DNA from: a virus
Direction: 5' to 3' (one strand)
IMG/VR virus record: IMGVR_UViG_3300044691_000355
Coordinates: 32,001-96,000 of that record
DNA: 64,000 bases
Shown: piece after piece, positions 3,664 through 26,686 of the stretch
How positions within the stretch are numbered: position 1 is the first letter of the stretch
Layout of the letters: the number at the start of each line of letters is the position of its first letter
Position numbers and translations under genes: made by a program
The notes under the pieces: model-generated
Told to the model about the DNA's origin: nothing
The model's input: the letters and a program-made list of their open reading frames with translations, nothing else
Databases searched by the model: none

Positions 3664-4086
3664 TTACGCGCTCACGGACCGACCGCTTTTCTTTCCCTTC
3701 GCGCTTCCCACCTGTCGCGCACGCAAGATAGCAATCGGCGTATTCAATTCCTCTTCCGTGGCCTTGGAGGCTGCCACGCGCGGCGGCAACGTGCGCTCCA
3801 TGCGCTCGAAGTTCGCCTGCGCCTGCGCCTTCGCATTGATCGCATCGATGTTGGCCTGTTTGCGCTTCGCATCCGCGATTTTCTTGCGCGCCTTCGCCGC
3901 CGCTTCACTTTCAATGCAGCCATCGGCGAGATTTGGGGGAGCCATCCATGGATGCGCGGCGATTTCCTTGCTGATCTCGTGCTCGCCGACTGGGAAGATT
4001 TTCTCCATGGGGAGGGGCTGTCCCTTTTCACGGTTCGCGGGAACCGTGAAACGGAACGCTCTCAAGACATTGATCTTGATGCCCAT
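3664..4086 (-). CDS. Phage protein downstream of capsid gene
   Basis: GEHEISKEIAAHPW motif; tight packing in operon. Confidence 0.6.
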   Translation of the reverse strand: MGIKINVLRAFRFTVPANREKGQPLPMEKIFPVGEHEISKEIAAHPWMAPPNLADGCIESEAAAKARKKIADAKRKQANIDAINAKAQAQANFERMERTLPPRVAASKATEEELNTPIAILRARQVGSAKGKKSGRSVSA

Positions 4087-4091
4087 GGGCG

Positions 4092-4481
4092 TTACTTCCC
4101 GGCCGGAGCGGGCTTCTCTGCCGCCCTGGCGTCCCGATCTGCCTTGGCTTTGGCTTGCTCGGCTCGGGTAGCTGCGACCCTGGCCTGCGCGTCGGCAGCC
4201 GCCTTATCGATGGCCTCCTGATCGGTGCGGGCCTGCTTCTGATCCTCCGTTTCGATGGACCCGTCCGCGCCGTCCATGATCCACGGATGCTCGATCATCT
4301 CAGGCGTGGTCTCGTGCTCGCGAGCCTCGCCATTCGGGCCGACGCCAAACTCTTTGGCGTACCCCGGCGTCGCGTGCTGCGTGATCTTGTTCGTCGCTGG
4401 GTCCCTGATCGCCGCCGTGCCCGCATGGGAGAACGTGAAAGGCTTCACCACGACAATCGTCTTGCCTACTTTGCTGGTCAT
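4092..4481 (-). CDS. Phage protein, probable paralogue of 3664-4086
   Basis: REHETTPEMIEHPW motif; RBS GGAGA. Confidence 0.6.
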   Translation of the reverse strand: MTSKVGKTIVVVKPFTFSHAGTAAIRDPATNKITQHATPGYAKEFGVGPNGEAREHETTPEMIEHPWIMDGADGSIETEDQKQARTDQEAIDKAAADAQARVAATRAEQAKAKADRDARAAEKPAPAGK

Positions 4482-18908: not shown

Positions 18909-19004
18909 CTACTTGATGATGTCGCCAGCCAGGCGCTTGCAGCGCATACAGATCGCTTTCAAGGGGCTGCGCTTATGGCCGAAGAAAAAGCAAAGAATGT
19001 TCAT
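18909..19004 (-). CDS. 31-aa Cys/His peptide
   Basis: MNILCFFFGHKRSPLKAICMRCKRLAGDIIK; ATGA overlap with terminase stop. Confidence 0.5.
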   Translation of the reverse strand: MNILCFFFGHKRSPLKAICMRCKRLAGDIIK

Positions 19005-20347
19005 TCGCCCAACTTCTCCCACTGCGCACCGACGCCGCGCCTTTGGATGTAGCCATCGAGCCCGTAGCGAACCGCGTCCCATCCATGGTTGTGTGCATCG
19101 ACGATGATGGGCAACACATCGCCCGTGATCCGGTCCACCTTGTAAGCGTACAGACGCGCCTCTTCCTGCATGTGCTTGCAGCGCTCGTGAATATGGATGC
19201 GGACGAAGCCTTTTAAATGCGCAACGCCGTCCTCTAACGACCCCGGCCATTTATCGGCGGCCGAAATGTTGAAGGACTTGCGCGCCATGTAGGAAATCGT
19301 CTCAGGGCGCGCGCAGTCGGCCCTGATCGGCCAGGCCCTTGAGCCGGGCACGGAGTCAAACAATTGCGGGGTCTCATCGATCTCCACGCGGTAGCCGAAG
19401 GCCTCGTGACTGATCCACAACTCCTGACTGTGATCAGGATTCTCAGTGACCCAGAAACGAATGAGCGCGGTAGGATCATTTGCAAAACCCCAGTCTGCGC
19501 CGTAAAAAATGCGGGTGTCTTCATGGGGATTGCCAAAGGATTCTACGAGGACCCGACGGCGGAACACCGCCGCATTGGAATTCTTTTGAAGCTTGCCTTC
19601 CCAGACGTGATCGTAATCGGCCTGTAACTGGGAGCGCTCATCATCATCGGTAGCCTCGGCGATGCGCCGCCAGTCATTCTCGCGCTCGGCCTTCAGCTCA
19701 TCGGGGAACCATGGATTGTCGTTCCAGTTCACCTCGACGCTGCGCATGTCCGGGCGCGTCGCGAGCACGAAGCGCTCGTACGTCGGGTCCGTCTCATCGC
19801 GCGGGTTGAACACCACCCAGATTTCGGATGAGCCCAACTTGGTGCGAATGGTGGGAATCAAATATTTCCAGGACGCATCGGAGACGCGCTCCGCTTCCTC
19901 GACCAGGCAGATATCAATCGCTTCGAGCGACTTGATCTTGAGCGGGTCCGTCTTGATCCCCGCGAAAATAAACTCGGTGCCGTTGACCCCAAAGATGGCC
20001 TGCGCCTGAATCTCGTAGAAGCGCGTGAGGCCCATCTGTTCGATGCGATCCGTGATCAGTTTGTAGATCGAATCGCGAATCGAGGTCTGGTACTCGCGCG
20101 CGCAGAGGATGCGCAGCCGGTGCTGCGTGCCCAACACGGCGCATAGGCCTGCAAAGCTCCAGCTCTTCCCCGATCCGCGCCCCCCGTAGGCCACCTTGTA
20201 GCGGCTCGGAATAAACACGGGCATGCCGCCGGGGCCCGGCCTGAAAAAGAGGTCCCGCAGTTTTGGCGGGAGAAAATCGTTAGTGGGTGAGTTGCGGCTC
20301 GGGGTCCTCATCCGTTGCTTCGGGTTTCTCAGCGGCTCCGGGTTCAT
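19001..20347 (-). CDS. terL: Terminase large subunit (PBSX family)
   Basis: YGGRGSGKS Walker A, CAREYQTSI, VEEAE Walker B, GADWGFANDP, NHGWDAVRY. Confidence 0.95.
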   Translation of the reverse strand: MNPEPLRNPKQRMRTPSRNSPTNDFLPPKLRDLFFRPGPGGMPVFIPSRYKVAYGGRGSGKSWSFAGLCAVLGTQHRLRILCAREYQTSIRDSIYKLITDRIEQMGLTRFYEIQAQAIFGVNGTEFIFAGIKTDPLKIKSLEAIDICLVEEAERVSDASWKYLIPTIRTKLGSSEIWVVFNPRDETDPTYERFVLATRPDMRSVEVNWNDNPWFPDELKAERENDWRRIAEATDDDERSQLQADYDHVWEGKLQKNSNAAVFRRRVLVESFGNPHEDTRIFYGADWGFANDPTALIRFWVTENPDHSQELWISHEAFGYRVEIDETPQLFDSVPGSRAWPIRADCARPETISYMARKSFNISAADKWPGSLEDGVAHLKGFVRIHIHERCKHMQEEARLYAYKVDRITGDVLPIIVDAHNHGWDAVRYGLDGYIQRRGVGAQWEKLGE

Positions 20348-20735
20348 AGATCAATGCCTTTTTCGGAAGGCCTGGACCGCCATCGGCGAAGGAGATACCA
20401 AGCTTCGGGTGATCGACCGGCCTGCCCTGCGCATCGAGCAATTGGTTTTGCACCACGTTGACCTCGCGCCAACCGGCTTGGGATTTCATCCAGAAAATCG
20501 CAGCGCCCAGGTTCATATCCACGGTGGCCATAGTGAAGAGCGTCTTGGCCACGGTCGCATTGCCGCGCGCCTTGCCCTGGTCTAATTCCAATTTGTAATA
20601 CTTGAGCAGCGTCGGGGTCGAGATGTTCATCAGCAGCGCGATGTCGTGATGAGGGGTGCCGACCGTGGCATACGCGCGCGCTTCGAGTGAATCCTTCTCC
20701 GTCTTGATGTGCTTCTTACCCCGCGTGCCCGCCAT
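20280..20735 (-). CDS. terS: Terminase small subunit
   Basis: HTH (IALLMNISTPTLLKYY), AAIFWMK..GW motif; directly upstream of terL. Confidence 0.8.
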   Translation of the reverse strand: MAGTRGKKHIKTEKDSLEARAYATVGTPHHDIALLMNISTPTLLKYYKLELDQGKARGNATVAKTLFTMATVDMNLGAAIFWMKSQAGWREVNVVQNQLLDAQGRPVDHPKLGISFADGGPGLPKKALIYEPGAAEKPEATDEDPEPQLTH

Positions 20736-20736
20736 T

Positions 20737-21006
20737 TTATTTGCGCGCTACCAGCGAGGCGGCCACGGTGACGGAGGCTTGCTGCACGCCTTGATCCGAT
20801 TGCCACAAGGAGCCGTTCATGCTCACCCCAACATCGCGGGCGTCATCGTCGGCAAGAATACCGACGAAGGCATCGGCTGCGGCCTGCGCCTGGACGGCAT
20901 CCGCCGCGTGCACCGACTGCGCGACAACGGTCGCATGCAGTGCTTCGGCGACTTTGTCTAAGGCCTCGGCTTTGGTTGCGCCGGTAACCTGGAATGAATA
21001 GGACAT
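20737..21006 (-). CDS. Hypothetical protein
   Basis: MSYSFQVTGATKAEA start; RBS GAGG. Confidence 0.6.
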   Translation of the reverse strand: MSYSFQVTGATKAEALDKVAEALHATVVAQSVHAADAVQAQAAADAFVGILADDDARDVGVSMNGSLWQSDQGVQQASVTVAASLVARK

Positions 21007-21011
21007 TGCAA

Positions 21012-21326
21012 TTACCTCGTTAGATGCTTGACGGCCCACATGACCGCCTCTTCGATTTTCGTCTTCGCCACCGACATCTCGCGGCTCGTGCCCAAGGAGT
21101 CGAAATACCCGTGCATCTGAAGGCCCAGGTCCTTGACCTTTTGCATCGCGATCTTTTCGGCATCGCTCAAGACCCGGTACTCGTGGCGCATGACGTTGTT
21201 GACGGTGCGTGCATCCGAGGCCGAATGCACGCTCTGCGCGGGACCGCCGAAGGCCGGGCTTGAGCGCGCGGCCTCCGGGATGTCGGCAGGCTTCGCGGCG
21301 TTTGCGATTTCGCGGGCGCTGTTCAT
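21012..21326 (-). CDS. Acb2/Tad1-like nucleotide-signal sponge, putative anti-defence protein
   Basis: YRVLSDAEKIAMQKVKDLG and SREMSVAKTKIEEAVMWAVKHLT resemble Acb2 and Tad1 helices. Confidence 0.68.
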   Translation of the reverse strand: MNSAREIANAAKPADIPEAARSSPAFGGPAQSVHSASDARTVNNVMRHEYRVLSDAEKIAMQKVKDLGLQMHGYFDSLGTSREMSVAKTKIEEAVMWAVKHLTR

Positions 21327-21634
21327 GCGGCGGGCGCGGGTGCAGCCGGAGTGTTGGCGGTGACGGCGGCGGCGAGCTTCGTGGACTCGGCAGTCAAGGA
21401 ATCCGACAAGGCTTGCAGCGCGGTGCCATCACCAGCGGCGTTCGCGGCAATCGCGGCATCGAGCTGCGTCTTCAATCCGGCGAGCAAGGTGATCGCAGAA
21501 TCTGCGGCGGTGGTGTTGGCGGCGACGGCGGCCGTTAATGCGTCGAGTTGTGTGCTCATGTTTTCCTGTCCTATGATCAGAGTGGATAGAGATGCGGCGA
21601 TGTAGCGCCACGCTTGAAATATGTTCATTCGCAT
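21323..21634 (-). CDS. Ala-rich coiled-coil protein
   Basis: LDALTAAVAANTT...LAAAVTANTP; true start may be MSTQLD. Confidence 0.6.
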   Translation of the reverse strand: MRMNIFQAWRYIAASLSTLIIGQENMSTQLDALTAAVAANTTAADSAITLLAGLKTQLDAAIAANAAGDGTALQALSDSLTAESTKLAAAVTANTPAAPAPAA

Positions 21635-21673
21635 TTAGGAGTACAATGTACGTCTTACTTGGAGGTACGCTAA

Positions 21674-22012
21674 TTGATACAAGAAGATTTACTCCGTGCG
21701 ATTTCGATTCGTCAGCCCTTGGTCGAGCTGATCCTGACGGGGGAGAAGGACATCGAATTCCGTTCACGCCCAACCAACATCCGCGAGCGCGTGTATCTGT
21801 ACGCCTCGCGCTCACTCACCACGGTGGATGGCTATCCAGAGGCCCAGGCGCAGCTACTTCCGCGCGGCCTGATCGTGGGCTCGGTCGAGATCATCGATTG
21901 CTTATGCGATGAAGAGGGCTGCGGCTACATTCTCGCGAGCCCCGTCCGCTATCTGAAACCATGGCGGCCACACGGCGTGCCACAGCCTTGCTTCTGGCGG
22001 CCTACGCGCTAG
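21674..22012 (+). CDS. ASCH domain protein
   Basis: AISIRQP..ELILTGEKDIEFRS (GxKxxExR), GLIVGSVEIIDC. Confidence 0.88.
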   Translation: MIQEDLLRAISIRQPLVELILTGEKDIEFRSRPTNIRERVYLYASRSLTTVDGYPEAQAQLLPRGLIVGSVEIIDCLCDEEGCGYILASPVRYLKPWRPHGVPQPCFWRPTR

Positions 22013-22778
22013 GGACTTCGATCCCAAACTCTTCGAGTAGCGCGGCTCCGTTCTGGTAGCGGTTCGCCTCCCAGCCTTTCGCCTTGATCAACGCATCGAC
22101 GGCATCGCCGGTCGCAAACACGAACACCAAATAGTTCTCTGACTCGCCCTTGCGCTTATTGGCCTCGGCGACCTTGGTGTATTTCTCGGAGATTTCCGCG
22201 AGGTGCGTGGCGAAGTCGGACAAGTCCTTGTCGCGGTTGTCGAACACCCCGGTGCCAAACATCTGCACCATGTCATTCTGCGTAAACCCTGCGCCCAGGA
22301 TCGACACTTCCGCATCGGAGAACACCGATTGCAGCAGGTCCAAGTCAAACGTGCCCATCGCCTGGGAGTTGTTCAACAGCACGTTCAATTCTTTTTCGCG
22401 CGCTGCCTCGACATCGATGACCGACACTTGCATCGTGTAGTCCTGCGTGCCCATCAGCGAATCCATGATCGAGATGCGCTGATGCCCGCCCACCAGATTG
22501 CCGGTGCGTTTATTCCACGTCACGGGGGCGACCAGGCCGTGGCGCTTGAGCGCGGCCTTCAACTTGTCGCGTTCCTGATCAGTGATCTTGCGCGGGTTGT
22601 ACGCGGCGGCCGTCAAGGTGGCGCGCGGCATCTCCTCGACGATGAAATTCTCAAGGCCTGCGGCTTTGAGCGAGGTGAACTTTTCCTTCACCGGCTTGCG
22701 CGGCTTGCTCGGCGTGGGCGGCGCATCGACGACCGGCGGCAGCACCTCGTTCAGCAGCACGTTGCCCTCGCCGCTCAT
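22002..22778 (-). CDS. ParB/Srx-like N-terminal domain protein
   Basis: YNPRKI, GLVAPVTWNKRTGNLVGGHQR; ATGA overlap with upstream gene. Confidence 0.85.
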   Translation of the reverse strand: MSGEGNVLLNEVLPPVVDAPPTPSKPRKPVKEKFTSLKAAGLENFIVEEMPRATLTAAAYNPRKITDQERDKLKAALKRHGLVAPVTWNKRTGNLVGGHQRISIMDSLMGTQDYTMQVSVIDVEAAREKELNVLLNNSQAMGTFDLDLLQSVFSDAEVSILGAGFTQNDMVQMFGTGVFDNRDKDLSDFATHLAEISEKYTKVAEANKRKGESENYLVFVFATGDAVDALIKAKGWEANRYQNGAALLEEFGIEVPSA

Positions 22779-23458
22779 GCGTGCCCCGTCTCGGGGAACC
22801 AGCGCTCGTGCAGCACCACGGTTTCGATGTACGGGAAGTATCCGCGCATGACTTCGTAATCCTCGCGATGATTGTGGTAGGCGTGTAAGATTTCGGAATT
22901 CATCAGCGAGAACCCGCCATTGTCGCCACGCCCCACGTCGGGGATCGGGATTTTGGCGGCCTTCAAGTACGACAGCACTTCCCATTTCAGCCAGTCCGAC
23001 AGCGGATGGATGACATCGGCCATCGTGTTTTTCTGATTCGACATGCGGCGGCGGCGAAAGATGCCGTCGGCTTTCTTCTCGCCATCGAGGATCAGCGTGG
23101 CCCCTGTGTCGGCCTTGATCCAGTTGTAGAGCGTGCGCCGGTCCAAGCTCGGCAGCGCATCCAGCTCAGGCAGCTCGTCGCAAAATAAACCGATGCGCAG
23201 AGCGTCGATGCCATCGGTCGAAGGGTATTTGCGGACGTTCAATCCATACCGCTCTTTGGCGAAGTAAATCTTCGACTCCTCGTGTTTCAGGCCTGGCACG
23301 AAGTAATAAAAATACGGGATGACGACTTTAAAAAACTTCACGGCGAGATCGAGGGTCGCGAGTGAATCCTTGCCGCCGGAGAAACCGACCGCCACGGTGC
23401 TGTGCGACTTGGCCAGCTCCGTCAATCGGTCGAAGGTTTCTTGCAGGTGCTCAGCCAC
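22775..23458 (-). CDS. PAPS-reductase-like PP-loop ATPase
   Basis: VAVGFSGGKDS PP-loop, GEKKADG, HPLSDW; only one Cys. Confidence 0.85.
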   Translation of the reverse strand: MAEHLQETFDRLTELAKSHSTVAVGFSGGKDSLATLDLAVKFFKVVIPYFYYFVPGLKHEESKIYFAKERYGLNVRKYPSTDGIDALRIGLFCDELPELDALPSLDRRTLYNWIKADTGATLILDGEKKADGIFRRRRMSNQKNTMADVIHPLSDWLKWEVLSYLKAAKIPIPDVGRGDNGGFSLMNSEILHAYHNHREDYEVMRGYFPYIETVVLHERWFPETGHA

Positions 23459-23653
23459 CTAGAAACTCGACTTCGCCCCGCGCGAGGTGCGCCTGTTGCC
23501 TTTCATAGCTGCCCGGCGCGCCTTCAATTTGCCGCGCTTGGCTGCCTTTTTGCGCAAGGATGCCAAGGCCTGCGGCGTGAGGGGTGCGCCCGCGCGCTTG
23601 CCCCTGACGCCGTGCATCCGCCGGAGCACCGCGAAGCTCTTGGCGGATGCCAT
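23459..23653 (-). CDS. Basic peptide B ending RGAKSSF
   Basis: 64 aa, Arg/Lys/Ala/Gly-rich with no acidic residue; stop abuts PP-loop gene start. Confidence 0.7.
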   Translation of the reverse strand: MASAKSFAVLRRMHGVRGKRAGAPLTPQALASLRKKAAKRGKLKARRAAMKGNRRTSRGAKSSF

Positions 23654-23664
23654 GGGTCATCGCC

Positions 23665-23895
23665 TTAGTAGCTCGACTTCGCGCCGCGCGCCATCGAGCG
23701 CTTGCCTCGAAATCCTGCGCCCTTGCCCGACCGCACGAAGCCGCGTCGGCCGCCCTTGCCTGCGGCGCGCTTGCGGATCAGGTCGCCCAAGTTGCCCGTG
23801 GTGCGCGCGTTCTTCGCGCTGCGGGCCTGCGCGCCCTTGCTGATTTTGCGGGTGCCCGCCTTCTTCTTCGCTGCCTTTTTCTTCGCCTTCGCCAT
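23665..23895 (-). CDS. Basic peptide A ending RGAKSSY
   Basis: 76 aa from MAKAKKK; RBS GAGGA; Arg/Lys/Ala/Gly-rich. Confidence 0.75.
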   Translation of the reverse strand: MAKAKKKAAKKKAGTRKISKGAQARSAKNARTTGNLGDLIRKRAAGKGGRRGFVRSGKGAGFRGKRSMARGAKSSY

Positions 23896-24187
23896 AAATA
23901 AAATCCTCGGTGGGTGAATCAACAACGCCGACCGTTCGGCACGCGCACGCGCGCAAGACCTCAAAGAGGTTTTGGCCTCTTAAGAACCTTGTAGGCGTAA
24001 GAACTTGAGGTGTTTGCCGCGATTTGCAGCGATTGAGCCGGTGCCTGATGGGCGCAGCTCGCAAACATTGACGTATCAGGCGCGAAAGTACGCCATGTTG
24101 GACCCCAAATGCAAGCGGCTACCAAGCAAAACGCCCACGAATTTGTCTACCGAGACAATGTGCGATGCAGCACGCGAGTTGGTGGAG

Positions 24188-24673
24188 TCAAACGTAGCGC
24201 ACCGCCACGGGTGATTTTGCCAGTCGATAGCCCACCTCTTCGGCGTCGCGATTGTGCTGCACGTACCCGGCAAGGTGCGACTTGAGCAACTCCAGTTGCT
24301 TCCAATAATCGTGCTCAGGGATCGGGATCACCGGGGCCTTGATGCGCACTGGGATTTCCCGCCACACGTAGTGCGCGTCTTGAATCAGCCGCCAGACTTG
24401 ATTCGGCATCGAGTACCAGGCGCGGTGCACGAGCAGCCCCATGCCGCTGTACACCTCGGGCCAATTCTGGTTCACGACCCCCATGGTGGATGCGCCCTCG
24501 GCTTCCTCCTTGATCCGTCCCAGCGTGCATGCGAGTTTGCCCAGACGTTCACTCGGCTCCAGCATCGATGCCAGAGTGATGCCGTGAATCTTGCGACGCG
24601 TCTGCGCCCAAGCCTTACACCAAATATCCACCTCATCGTCTTTCCAGCGCACGGCGTTTCTCCCTGGCGACAC
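24188..24673 (-). CDS. Putative late-gene regulator (antiterminator Q position)
   Basis: WCKAWA N-terminal motif, helical C-terminus; last early gene before late operon. Confidence 0.4.
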   Translation of the reverse strand: MSPGRNAVRWKDDEVDIWCKAWAQTRRKIHGITLASMLEPSERLGKLACTLGRIKEEAEGASTMGVVNQNWPEVYSGMGLLVHRAWYSMPNQVWRLIQDAHYVWREIPVRIKAPVIPIPEHDYWKQLELLKSHLAGYVQHNRDAEEVGYRLAKSPVAVRYV

Positions 24674-24787
24674 TCAAGCAAACCGAACAAATAAACTTGC
24701 CGCGCACCAAGCGGCTATCGATGGCGCTGCGCGGATGGTGGCAGCGCGTGCAGATGCGCAGGAAAGTGATGCCGCGCGTGACGCCCG

Positions 24788-25330
24788 TCATCGCAGCCAC
24801 CGACGCATGGCATCGGGCGTCATGACCTCGGGCGGACGCACGGGCTGCGGCGCAGCGCCGACCACGCTGATGTCATCCAGTCTGAAAACCGGATACGGAG
24901 TTAGTGACGCGCGTGCAACCAGCAACTGCCGCGTGAGGCGAATCGCCGTGCCGTTCTTCACGAGCGCCTGATTGAAGCGCAGCACATGCCAGCCCAGGAG
25001 CGCCGCGTTCGCGTACTTGATGCAATCGGCCTCGAAGCCCACGAACGTGCAGTGACGGCCCAGGGCATAGGGCACGCCCTTGATGTAGCTCTTGCGCAGG
25101 CCCTCGATCTCCACGCCGACCTTCAACTCAGGCCACGCAAAATCCATTTTCCAGCGGCGGCTGTTATCGAATCGGAATTCGCGTACGCACGTCGGGAGTC
25201 GATAGCCCGCGTTGCAAACCTGCAACCAGAACATCTCCTCGCCCTTGGACTTCGCACGCGGTTGGCGCTTCGCCTTCGGGATGTTGGCCTTTGGAAATGC
25301 CGTGCGGGCCTGGGCGACGCTCATGCGCAT
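24788..25330 (-). CDS. PD-(D/E)XK endonuclease (DUF559/Vsr-like, possible resolvase)
   Basis: REFRF..RRWKMDFAWP..KVGVEIEG, DCIKY.NAALLGWHVLRF. Confidence 0.8.
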   Translation of the reverse strand: MRMSVAQARTAFPKANIPKAKRQPRAKSKGEEMFWLQVCNAGYRLPTCVREFRFDNSRRWKMDFAWPELKVGVEIEGLRKSYIKGVPYALGRHCTFVGFEADCIKYANAALLGWHVLRFNQALVKNGTAIRLTRQLLVARASLTPYPVFRLDDISVVGAAPQPVRPPEVMTPDAMRRWLR

Positions 25331-25656
25331 CAGAACCCCATCCGATTTTCGAGGAGCGTTACCAGCCGCTCCAACAATTCACGCACCTGCTCTAACCGCG
25401 TGTCGATGCTCGCGAGCACCTCCAGGCTTTGCAGTTGAATCCGCGCGGATACGATGGCCGCTTCGACTGGAGTATGCGGATCGTCCATCATGGACGGCGT
25501 CGCTTACCGCTAAGCTTGCGTTGCCAGGCGACTCCGGCTTTCCAAAACGGCCAGCATCCAAACCAGGCGGAGGGCTCGATCCGGTTCTTGCGCATGTACG
25601 CCTCGAAGGCCTTGCGGGAACTGATAGGCGGGATTCTCGTCATCGGTTTTCTCCAG

Positions 25657-25968
25657 TTACTTCCGTATCGCTGTGCGCCGTCCCTTGCGCTGTCTTGATG
25701 GGGCGCATGGCGCTACCTGAACCTTCGCGTAACCACGCTCGAAGGCGTCGCCCCAAGTCTGCCGCTCGACACCGTAGCGGGCCTTGGGGTTGATGAACTC
25801 TTCGGTGAGCCCATTCGCGAGGATGAAAGCTCCGATACGCTGCTCGCGTTCCTCGGGAGTCGTGACCCCACGGAATAGATCAACGCCAAACGCGCGAAAT
25901 ATTCTTTCGTGGAAATAGTCATCGACCGCCATGCGCGCGAACAGCGCCTCATTGCTCGGGCCAGACAT
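25657..25968 (-). CDS. Hypothetical protein
   Basis: Start at MSGPSNE; resembles 47026-47271. Confidence 0.5.
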   Translation of the reverse strand: MSGPSNEALFARMAVDDYFHERIFRAFGVDLFRGVTTPEEREQRIGAFILANGLTEEFINPKARYGVERQTWGDAFERGYAKVQVAPCAPSRQRKGRRTAIRK

Positions 25969-26686
25969 CAGCGTCATCGAAGAAGTTTGCGGCGGCTTCG
26001 GTCTCGGCAGGCGAGGCTTCCCAAAAGATGCCATCTTTCGGCCGGAACTGCGCATCCTCGATGCTGCCTGACACTTCGAGCGGTGGCACATTGGGCGCAA
26101 CTAGCAAGCCGGTCTTCTGCGCCGCAATCTTTTTCGCAAGGCCGGTCTGTTCATTGATGCCGCCGCGTGTCGCGATGCGCTTGAACATCGCCATGACTCG
26201 CGCGTGGCGTTCCGTATCGGCGAACATCTCGGCGACGGTGACGCGTGTGACGGTGAAGTCATCGCGCGTGATGCACACGGCCGACAGCGCGGAGTTGCGT
26301 TGCTTATCGACCCACCACTCCCGGAAATCATATTCCCAGGGGGCTGCGATCTCGCGCGGTGTCAGATGCAGCCGATCCATCGCGTAGGCGCAGAGCTGCT
26401 CTTGCAGTGAGGCAATCGGCTTCTCACCGGGCGGCGCGTCCTGCACGGCATTGGGTCCAACCCGGCGCAGCTCGCGGTGCAGGTTCCACACCTGCGGCAC
26501 GTTCGGCATCTTCTCAGGCCCGTCCTCGGATAACGCCCGCTCCATCACGCGCCCGAGCTGCACGAGGGTGAGCTTCTGCAATCCGATCCAGTACGCCTCG
26601 ATTCGATCAGGCGAGGGGAAGTCCCCGTATGCGCCGAAGAATTTACGCATCTGCGAATTGAATTCATCGCGGTCATTGCTTTGCAC
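25949..26686 (-). CDS. Putative helicase loader / replication protein
   Basis: Follows initiator; IEAYWIGL, KMPNVPQV motifs. Confidence 0.5.
   Translation of the reverse strand: MQSNDRDEFNSQMRKFFGAYGDFPSPDRIEAYWIGLQKLTLVQLGRVMERALSEDGPEKMPNVPQVWNLHRELRRVGPNAVQDAPPGEKPIASLQEQLCAYAMDRLHLTPREIAAPWEYDFREWWVDKQRNSALSAVCITRDDFTVTRVTVAEMFADTERHARVMAMFKRIATRGGINEQTGLAKKIAAQKTGLLVAPNVPPLEVSGSIEDAQFRPKDGIFWEASPAETEAAANFFDDADVWPEQ

Follow-up and report, generated by a model that had tools for sequence, protein, structure and literature searches.

The stretch of DNA analysed here (the window, 64,000 nucleotides in length) corresponds to bases 32001–96000 of a 132,772-bp soil phage record, IMG/VR record IMGVR_UViG_3300044691_000355, which is rated 96% complete. 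On the minus strand of the window, two small adjacent genes, here called pep1 and pep2, head a gap-free run that continues with the gene of a PP-loop ATP pyrophosphatase-type enzyme and that of a ParB-like protein. Both small genes are real, they are diverged paralogues, and the presence of a small basic open reading frame (ORF) in this position is tied specifically to this PP-loop enzyme family, a link that is well supported by a comparison of loci. The peptides would represent the small-protein part of a phage module, and adenylation of their C-terminus followed by transfer is the most likely way for this module to work, with a probability that we would place slightly short of an even chance.

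The Two Small Basic Genes

The first gene of the run, pep1 (23665–23895, minus strand), encodes a predicted disordered polycationic protein of 76 amino acids that begins with MAKAKKK, contains a central TTGNLGDLIR block and ends in SMARGAKSSY followed by a TAA stop codon. The second one, pep2 (23459–23653, minus strand), encodes a basic paralogue of 64 amino acids that ends in TSRGAKSSF followed by TAG, and this stop codon abuts the start of the PP-loop gene. With 26 lysine and arginine residues and a single acidic residue pep1 carries a net charge of +25, and with 20 lysine and arginine residues and no acidic residue pep2 carries a net charge of +20. The first-pass annotation, made by a model from the sequence alone, had described two adjacent ORFs of 76 and 64 amino acids, rich in lysine and arginine and ending in RGAKSSY and RGAKSSF, and this description is borne out by the ORF calls, the codon composition and the homologues. 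The GC content at third codon positions (GC3) reaches 0.87 in the pep1 frame and 0.85 in the pep2 frame, compared with 0.73–0.83 in the neighbouring genes, and four overlapping rival ORFs show no GC3 peak. In addition, a GAGGA ribosome-binding site is located 8 nt 5′ of the pep1 ATG. It is because of these GC3 values, the ribosome-binding site, the tight junctions between the genes and the existence of homologues that differ along their length yet keep the tail that pep1 and pep2 are taken as real genes.

The homologues are few. The relative of pep2 (P0031), which comes from another metagenome, also has 64 amino acids and is 86% identical, with ten scattered substitutions and the SRGAKSSF end unchanged. 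For pep1, HMMER was run exhaustively against 1.84 billion representatives and yielded a sole homologue, a metagenomic protein of 64 amino acids (P0033; 56% identical, E 2.7e-4) in which TTGNMGDLIR and AMARGAKSSY are kept. No tblastn match to pep1 was obtained in the phage collection, a word-based search returned pep1 itself only, and the protein belongs to no Pfam, PHROG, NCBIfam or PADLOC family. A search of the protein Atlas gave only sub-threshold and unnamed neighbours, and the Atlas model of pep1 has a predicted local distance difference test score (pLDDT) of 0.36. As for the relationship between the two peptides, the initial view that they are dissimilar outside the tail is right insofar as the significance of their BLASTP match is confined to the tail (E 0.002), but their alignment reaches about 39% identity and includes a shared middle block, KGGRRG in pep1 and KAAKRG in pep2.

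Association of the Peptide with the PP-Loop Family

The comparison of loci was based on a family set of 30 loci that encode clear enzyme relatives, gathered from viral, genome and metagenome collections and including three isolated phages. The loci contributed by profile scans are among the matches listed, mostly at no more than 45% identity, and a tighter profile added only one locus (L085); a search with the single protein for related loci in the genome and viral contig collections returned no relatives. The control set consisted of 53 loci with more distant PP-loop proteins, three of which had too little upstream DNA, leaving 50 usable. Two family loci were dropped before counting, one as a duplicate (L009, of L008) and one for having no upstream DNA (L014), as were two controls that matched only the C-terminal part of the query (L045 and L073). 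The rule was set beforehand: an ATG-initiated ORF on the same strand, 18–130 amino acids long, whose end falls from −200 to +45 nt relative to the start of the enzyme, and which has a net charge of no less than 0.15 per residue and contains neither cysteine nor tryptophan.

Under this strict rule, 21 of the 30 family loci and 2 of the 50 controls have a small basic ORF immediately upstream of the enzyme, which makes the link between peptide and enzyme well supported. Furthermore, both control matches (L019 and L020) turn out to be truncated members of the family, with a peptide that ends in GKGGGGGG. When the loci were read by eye, four more (L002, L008, L066 and L089) could be added, which raises the count to 25/30. 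A neighbourhood survey looking for upstream basic peptides with conserved C-termini was what the first-pass annotation had suggested, and the outcome is divided: the upstream basic ORF recurs across the family, but the C-termini vary between lineages. The ParB gene follows the PP-loop gene in 27 of the 30 loci, and an ASCH-domain gene in reverse orientation comes after it, as in the window, in three of them (L012, L066 and L069), while in L067 ASCH is located upstream. The gene order is the same in the isolated phages RAP44 and BS-TP2.

Several loci depart from the common arrangement. In L019 (about 3900–4210) and L020 (1811–2119) the PP-loop ORF is truncated to 102 amino acids and the basic GKGGGGGG peptide is still found 5′ of it; judging from these sequences, the enzyme may be decaying or frameshifted with the peptide retained. 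In L013 (2021–2792) the PP-loop frame runs into a basic end with a glycine run, and a separate basic Gly-tailed ORF of 25 amino acids is found downstream instead of upstream, a situation due to a variant gene order or else to a break in the assembly. In L085, the PP-loop gene and the ParB gene, overlapping in the window, lie about 550 nt apart (1766–2317), with no clear gene in between. Finally, four close homologues of the enzyme (P0008, P0013, P0016 and P0020) carry C-terminal extensions rich in lysine and arginine, with ends resembling KKKRAGATA, which suggests that enzyme and basic segment may at times be joined in one protein.

The C-Terminal Tail

The tail of pep1 (RGAKSSY and stop, 23665–23688, minus strand) and that of pep2 (RGAKSSF and stop, 23459–23482, minus strand) contain the longest invariant run, the six residues RGAKSS, in an alignment of the four peptides pep1, pep2, P0031 and P0033. 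These four known sequences are 39–56% identical overall, and the C-terminus is their most conserved part. At the DNA level, two codons differ synonymously between the tails of pep1 and pep2 (GGC/GGG and AGC/AGT), in addition to the Tyr/Phe exchange, which points to selection on the protein and not to a fresh DNA copy. The back-translated tail pattern is found at these two sites only, and none of 100 shuffled versions of the window contained it; elsewhere in the 132,772-bp record the tail DNA pattern has no match, and none was obtained in the viral contig collection.

In position and composition, pep1 and pep2 agree with the glycine-tailed basic peptides of the PP-loop/ParB module, from which they differ in ending with RGAKSSY and RGAKSSF instead of glycine. 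A glycine run, such as GGGGGG, GGMGG, GGSGG or GGKGG, closes most of the family peptides, and only a weak TTG block, recognized by eye, is common to these and the window peptides. The clade formed by the window, L085 and L066 (support 99/97) has no glycine run, its tails being SSY and SSF, KRR and KDG, respectively. Twin peptides with matching ends occur in two further loci, L010 (LGGAG and LGGSG) and L012 (RRRAR twice). As read from these sequences, the tails appear to agree within a genome and to differ between genomes, a pattern consistent with recognition of the terminus by a partner that co-evolves with it. The difference between genomes also suggests that with RGAKSS[YF] we see a local solution instead of a motif of the family, and among the loci compared the motif indeed appears lineage-specific. 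The earlier proposal that the shared terminus is a recognition motif finds no support at the level of the family: conservation within the four peptides is highest at this terminus, but RGAKSS[YF] is absent from the viral collection, and its place is taken by a glycine run in most relatives and by KRR in L085.

The PP-Loop Enzyme

The enzyme gene (22775–23458, minus strand) encodes a protein of 227 amino acids with SGGKDS at residues 27–32 and a single cysteine, and its relatives are labelled 'PAPS reductase' in databases. At the junction with pep2, which reads TAGGTG, the GTG start of the enzyme (23458) is the base right after the pep2 stop, and the stop codon of the enzyme overlaps the ATG of the ParB-like gene by 4 nt (ATGA, 22775–22778); the genes of the small and large terminase subunits, TerS and TerL, lie downstream of the module. 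The arrangement described at first, a PP-loop gene following without a gap and coupled to a ParB gene near the terminases, is thus confirmed, as is the observation of SGGKDS with only one cysteine and no iron–sulfur (Fe-S) or redox motifs. Among 28 family sequences (29 homologues of the enzyme were found), residues S27, G29, K30 and D31 of the PP-loop are invariant, together with G126, D131, P152, W156, D200 and P209. C93, the sole cysteine, occurs in roughly half of these sequences, and no cysteine is conserved family-wide.

The SGGKDS motif, the invariant loop residues and the PP-loop fold of the model (pLDDT 89) place the enzyme in the PP-loop ATP pyrophosphatase superfamily. Its structural neighbours score about equally, with Z values of 13.8 for LarE, 12.6 for NcsA, 12.5 for CysD, 12.4 for FAD synthase, 11.8 for QueC, 11.1–11.7 for TilS and 10.3 for Cap9, and Foldseek too lists TtuA and NcsA among the top ones. 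The best sequence-profile match in the PDB is Cap9 (E 1.6e-4), which is local only. The Pfam family PAPS_reduct is matched above its gathering score (3e-7), although only over residues 22–81, that is, positions 2–61 of the 175 in the profile, and the matches to phrog_424 and phrog_2302 are likewise restricted to the PP-loop. No curated NCBIfam or PADLOC family is reached: none of the NCBIfam cut-offs for CysH, CysD or DndC is attained (best 24.8 bits against a cut-off of 195), the PADLOC DndC profile matches the PP-loop only (E 0.026), the PADLOC QueC profile covers just 26 residues (E 0.0077), and QueC (PF06508) gives no match in Pfam or NCBIfam.

Several specific assignments can be set aside on these grounds. 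CysH has a conserved catalytic cysteine near its C-terminus, and a true PAPS reductase of this kind is contradicted by the partial Pfam match, the unconserved C93 and the missed NCBIfam cut-offs. DndC is rejected given a single, non-conserved cysteine and a weak match limited to the PP-loop. A thiolase of the TtuA/Ncs6 type acting with a ubiquitin-like carrier does not fit a family that has no conserved cysteine and whose partner peptides, here of low model confidence, end in SSY and SSF. A sacrificial cysteine as in LarE is equally at odds with the variability of C93, and the enzyme is not a member of the QueC family to which Cap9 and QatC belong, the likeness to these lying in the working mode. 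The lack of a conserved cysteine implies that Fe-S, thiol-redox or sacrificial-sulfur reactions are not the general chemistry of the family, and what remains is ATP-dependent adenylation. From its sequence, the enzyme is therefore predicted to be an adenylating PP-loop protein and not a PAPS reductase.

The ParB-Like and ASCH Partners

The ParB/Srx-fold protein (22002–22778, minus strand; 258 amino acids) contains YNPR and GGHQR motifs that are invariant in 18 of 18 ParB-like sequences. It matches phrog_9353 (1e-44), the ParB-like phrog_620 (4.5e-23) and, in PADLOC, the ParB N-domain of type II methyltransferases (6e-17), and phmmer retrieves ParB 4umk (E 0.0038). The top Foldseek neighbours of its model (pLDDT 81) are ParB-CDP 6sdk (E 6e-6), Noc, KorB and sulfiredoxin. 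These results place the protein within ParB/Srx (ParB-CTPase fold), and the modelled structure predicts a ParB NTPase fold. A canonical chromosome or plasmid ParB also has an HTH DNA-binding domain, a domain for dimerisation at its C-terminus and ParA as partner. Here, the ParB matches cover only the N-domain (residues ~47–150 of the query), the C-terminal half is helical in the model and matches no assigned domain, and reading the region brought no ParA to light.

Convergent with the ParB-like gene is an ASCH-domain gene (21674–22012, plus strand), whose 3′ end overlaps that of its neighbour by 11 nt. The assignment comes from Pfam (PF04266, E 1.7e-4), where the score of 22.7 bits exceeds the cut-off of 21.2 by a small margin.

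A Proposed Mechanism

The module would head the packaging operon as a widespread arrangement comprising one or more small basic tailed proteins, the PP-loop enzyme, the ParB/Srx-fold protein and often ASCH, followed by TerS and TerL. PP-loop enzymes that adenylate carboxylates are known, as in the cases of NAD synthetase, QueC and LarE. We propose that the small proteins are the protein partner of the enzyme, on which they would dock through their lineage-specific terminus, that their C-terminal carboxylate would be activated by ATP as an acyl-adenylate, and that an amine would then receive it. This amine would probably belong to phage DNA that the ParB-like protein holds prior to packaging. 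In such a scheme, ASCH could act as a reader or as an amidohydrolase, a role with a precedent in YqfB, which acts on N4-acetylcytidine. In this particular lineage, the usual glycine run would have been replaced by RGAKSS[YF] and the peptide gene duplicated. A precedent for a PP-loop enzyme working on the disordered terminus of a protein is documented in Cap9-CdnD and QatC-QatB (10.1101/2025.04.06.647259; PMC13279940). A more daring version of this scheme, which we regard as rather improbable, would have the polycationic peptides, products of the ribosome, joined through their C-terminal carboxylate to the bases of phage DNA by a PP-loop ligase working on a ParB-like clamp, giving a peptidyl-DNA hypermodification that is made before packaging, can be removed by ASCH, and in which tail and enzyme co-evolve as lineage-specific pairs.

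A number of observations weigh against C-terminal adenylation and transfer. Five of the 30 family loci (L013, L015, L068, L069 and L087, the last being Lactobacillus phage LR1) have no peptide, which means that the enzyme pair can exist without it, and the locus counts stand without the neighbourhoods of the 20-odd closest homologues of the enzyme (P0002–P0025, 47–74% identical). In the nearest relative seen (L085, with an enzyme 60% identical) the tail is not conserved, and the tree of the enzyme requires at least five changes to account for the non-glycine tails. If a single active site worked on the C-terminal carboxylate, it would need to accept glycine in most lineages and tyrosine or phenylalanine here. 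The peptides of L012 and L053 contain no lysine, and for this reason a lysine-linked, TilS-like reaction is discarded as a general mechanism. Lastly, the strong positive charge by itself would explain plain DNA binding.

Alternative Explanations

Plain non-covalent DNA binding is the main rival, although we consider it unlikely. The peptides, produced at the beginning of the packaging operon, would act as polycations, binding DNA like protamines, neutralizing charge or tethering the enzyme pair, with the tail serving as a docking peg for ParB, the terminase or the portal and the peptide itself undergoing no chemistry. The high net charge of both peptides with almost no acidic residues, the low-confidence Atlas model of pep1, the position of the peptide genes just 5′ of TerS and TerL, and the fact that it is composition and not sequence that is kept across the family, the tail varying freely between lineages, are all in favour of this role. 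However, the small ORF tracks this single PP-loop family and not packaging operons at large, as revealed by the counts against controls that are PP-loop loci and not ParB-TerS loci devoid of a PP-loop gene, and charge alone hardly explains terminal glycine runs or the matching tails of twin peptides.

It is also conceivable, with a lower probability that we would call slim, that the reaction takes place at the other end of the peptide, as in Cap9 and QatC, so that an adenylated small-molecule carboxylate would be joined to the N-terminal amine (Ala2 after removal of the methionine), leaving the C-terminal tail for another partner. Cap9 and QatC are described, in the sections of the sources available, as modifying or binding N-terminal glycine motifs of disordered tails; Cap9 is both the best profile match in the PDB and a structural neighbour of the enzyme; and most family peptides start with MA by reading, including pep1, pep2, P0031 and P0033. 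Nevertheless, many proteins of all kinds carry a small residue in second position, and it is the C-terminus, not the N-terminus, that is most conserved in the four peptides. The missing QueC membership in Pfam and NCBIfam and the marginal PADLOC match also argue against an N-terminal reaction, and reading the region brought no 7-deazaguanine genes to notice.

Asparagine synthetase-like lasso cyclases provide the model for another reading, very unlikely in our opinion, in which the small genes would encode precursors that the PP-loop enzyme turns into a processed and possibly exported bioactive product, similar to ribosomally synthesized and post-translationally modified peptides. In its favour are the small precursor-like genes, sometimes twin, directly 5′ of an ATP-dependent enzyme, but neither a protease nor a transporter nor an immunity gene is found beside the module, the peptides have no leader/core structure and no pattern of cysteine, serine or threonine, and the constant partners ParB, ASCH and terminase are all nucleic-acid-acting.

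The two weakest explanations carry hardly any probability. The first one takes the enzyme as an auxiliary sulfur-metabolism gene (a true PAPS reductase) or a Dnd-like phosphorothioation enzyme with unrelated small ORFs, in agreement with the Pfam match above the gathering score and with the treatment of viral 'PAPS reductase' genes as sulfur-metabolism genes in the part of the literature source consulted (10.1101/2021.07.29.453957), but it is countered by the restriction of that match to the PP-loop, the variability of C93, the low NCBIfam and PADLOC scores given above and the absence of DndA, DndD and DndE nearby. According to the second, the small ORFs would be chance products of GC-rich DNA and the shared 21–24 nt a DNA or RNA repeat, such as a duplicated ribosome-binding junction, for which the ORFs overlapping in other frames and a DNA likeness that continues about 10 nt beyond the stops (TA[AG]G..G.TGA) may be adduced, but the GC3 peak is exclusive to the peptide frames, the homologues keep the frame with scattered substitutions, two synonymous differences fall within the tail, and equivalent ORFs occur in AT-rich relatives (34–46% GC).

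Genomic Surroundings

Three small genes lie between ASCH/ParB and TerS. One of them (21012–21326, minus strand) encodes a protein of 104 amino acids with an Acb2/Tad1 hairpin domain (Pfam, 2.7e-16), likely a sponge for host immune signalling nucleotides. TerS (20280–20735, minus strand) is recognized by phrog_309 (2.8e-12), and TerL (19001–20347, minus strand) by Pfam Terminase_3 (2.5e-35) and Terminase_3C. On the upstream side, a non-coding gap of 290 nt (23896–24187) precedes pep1, and a gene at 24788–25330 (minus strand) encodes a protein of 180 amino acids that matches phrog_503 (7.7e-25), a family of unknown function. Rfam gave no match in 20000–26000, and promoter and terminator scans returned nothing above shuffles. 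Short contigs from a second soil metagenome, belonging to another study, are identical to the window across parts of 22574–23743, a region that includes the ParB, PP-loop and peptide genes, and hence the same phage seems to occur in the two studies; as the contigs are identical wherever they overlap, they offer no variation to analyse. No RNA data set is listed as containing this region. A long stretch purged of a short word was not seen in the window, where the gaps of all 3- and 4-mers stay within 2.4 times expectation.

Relationship to Known Systems

Pairs annotated as 'PAPS reductase family protein' and 'ParB-like nuclease' are found before the terminase in Riemerella phage RAP44 (gp33/gp32), Bacteroides phage BS-TP2 (gp54/gp55) and Lactobacillus phage LR1. 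Their enzymes are homologous to that of the window (27–32% identical over 86–95% of the query), and the order PP-loop, ParB, TerS, TerL is the same. RAP44 has an unannotated basic ORF of 44 amino acids directly upstream, and in BS-TP2 the equivalent position is occupied by gp53, of 53 amino acids and ending in NGSNG, with ASCH annotated upstream of the peptide, while LR1 is devoid of the basic peptide. What distinguishes the window lineage from these phages is the RGAKSS[YF] tail, present there only and in two copies.

The combination of a PP-loop enzyme with a small protein carrying a C-terminal tail is also seen in TtuA-TtuB and in Ncs6/NcsA-Urm1/SAMP, in which the tail is Gly-Gly and constitutes the working end. 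TtuB is a folded beta-grasp protein, unlike the window peptides, which are predicted disordered polycations and do not end in Gly-Gly. Moreover, TtuA and NcsA hold Fe-S clusters by cysteines, as stated in PDB titles, whereas the family of the window has no conserved cysteine. In type IV cyclic oligonucleotide-based anti-phage signalling (CBASS deazaguanylation, Cap9-CdnD) and in QatC-QatB, a PP-loop enzyme of the QueC family acts on the disordered terminal tail of its partner; these systems, as far as the sections consulted describe them, correspond to host defence and involve an N-terminal glycine and 7-deazaguanine chemistry, in contrast to a phage module with a conserved C-terminal tail and an enzyme outside the QueC family.

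Pairs formed by a PAPS-reductase-like PP-loop protein and a member of the ParB superfamily, as in the window, include DndC-DndB (PMC10853773, consulted in part) and IbrA-IbrB/YbdN-YbdM. DndC has a 4Fe-4S centre on three cysteines and a cysteine dyad, following the same portion of the source (PMC10853773). These cysteines are absent from the window enzyme. IbrA is longer and has an extra C-terminal domain, for which the window enzyme shows no match; this comparison relies on its length of 227 amino acids, the partial PAPS_reduct match and the lack of a second domain, rather than on a direct alignment with IbrA. The initial comparison of the locus with IbrA/IbrB and DndC-like systems keeps its value for the pairing of the genes and, as regards DndC, loses it for the enzyme itself. 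Neither the Dnd nor the Ibr pair has been described with a small basic peptide, within the sources consulted, and a search of the literature, supplementary files being outside it, found no paper on the function of the PP-loop/ParB module or its peptides.

Implications for Phage Biology

The 'PAPS reductase' and 'ParB-like nuclease' pair is annotated in many phages, usually as sulfur metabolism, without a measured function. The locus described here indicates that the predicted adenylating enzyme is accompanied by one or two very small polycationic proteins that are usually overlooked in annotation, and whose terminal tail, as deduced from the sequences, appears to be under selection and yet swappable between lineages. 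A vague annotation thereby becomes a testable system of three or four genes, in which the non-glycine twin tails represent a natural specificity experiment. Should the peptides be substrates of the enzyme, the module would bring to light a new ATP-dependent peptide-conjugation chemistry in phages, and, if the proposal is true, possibly a new DNA modification with relevance to packaging density or to the escape from host defence.

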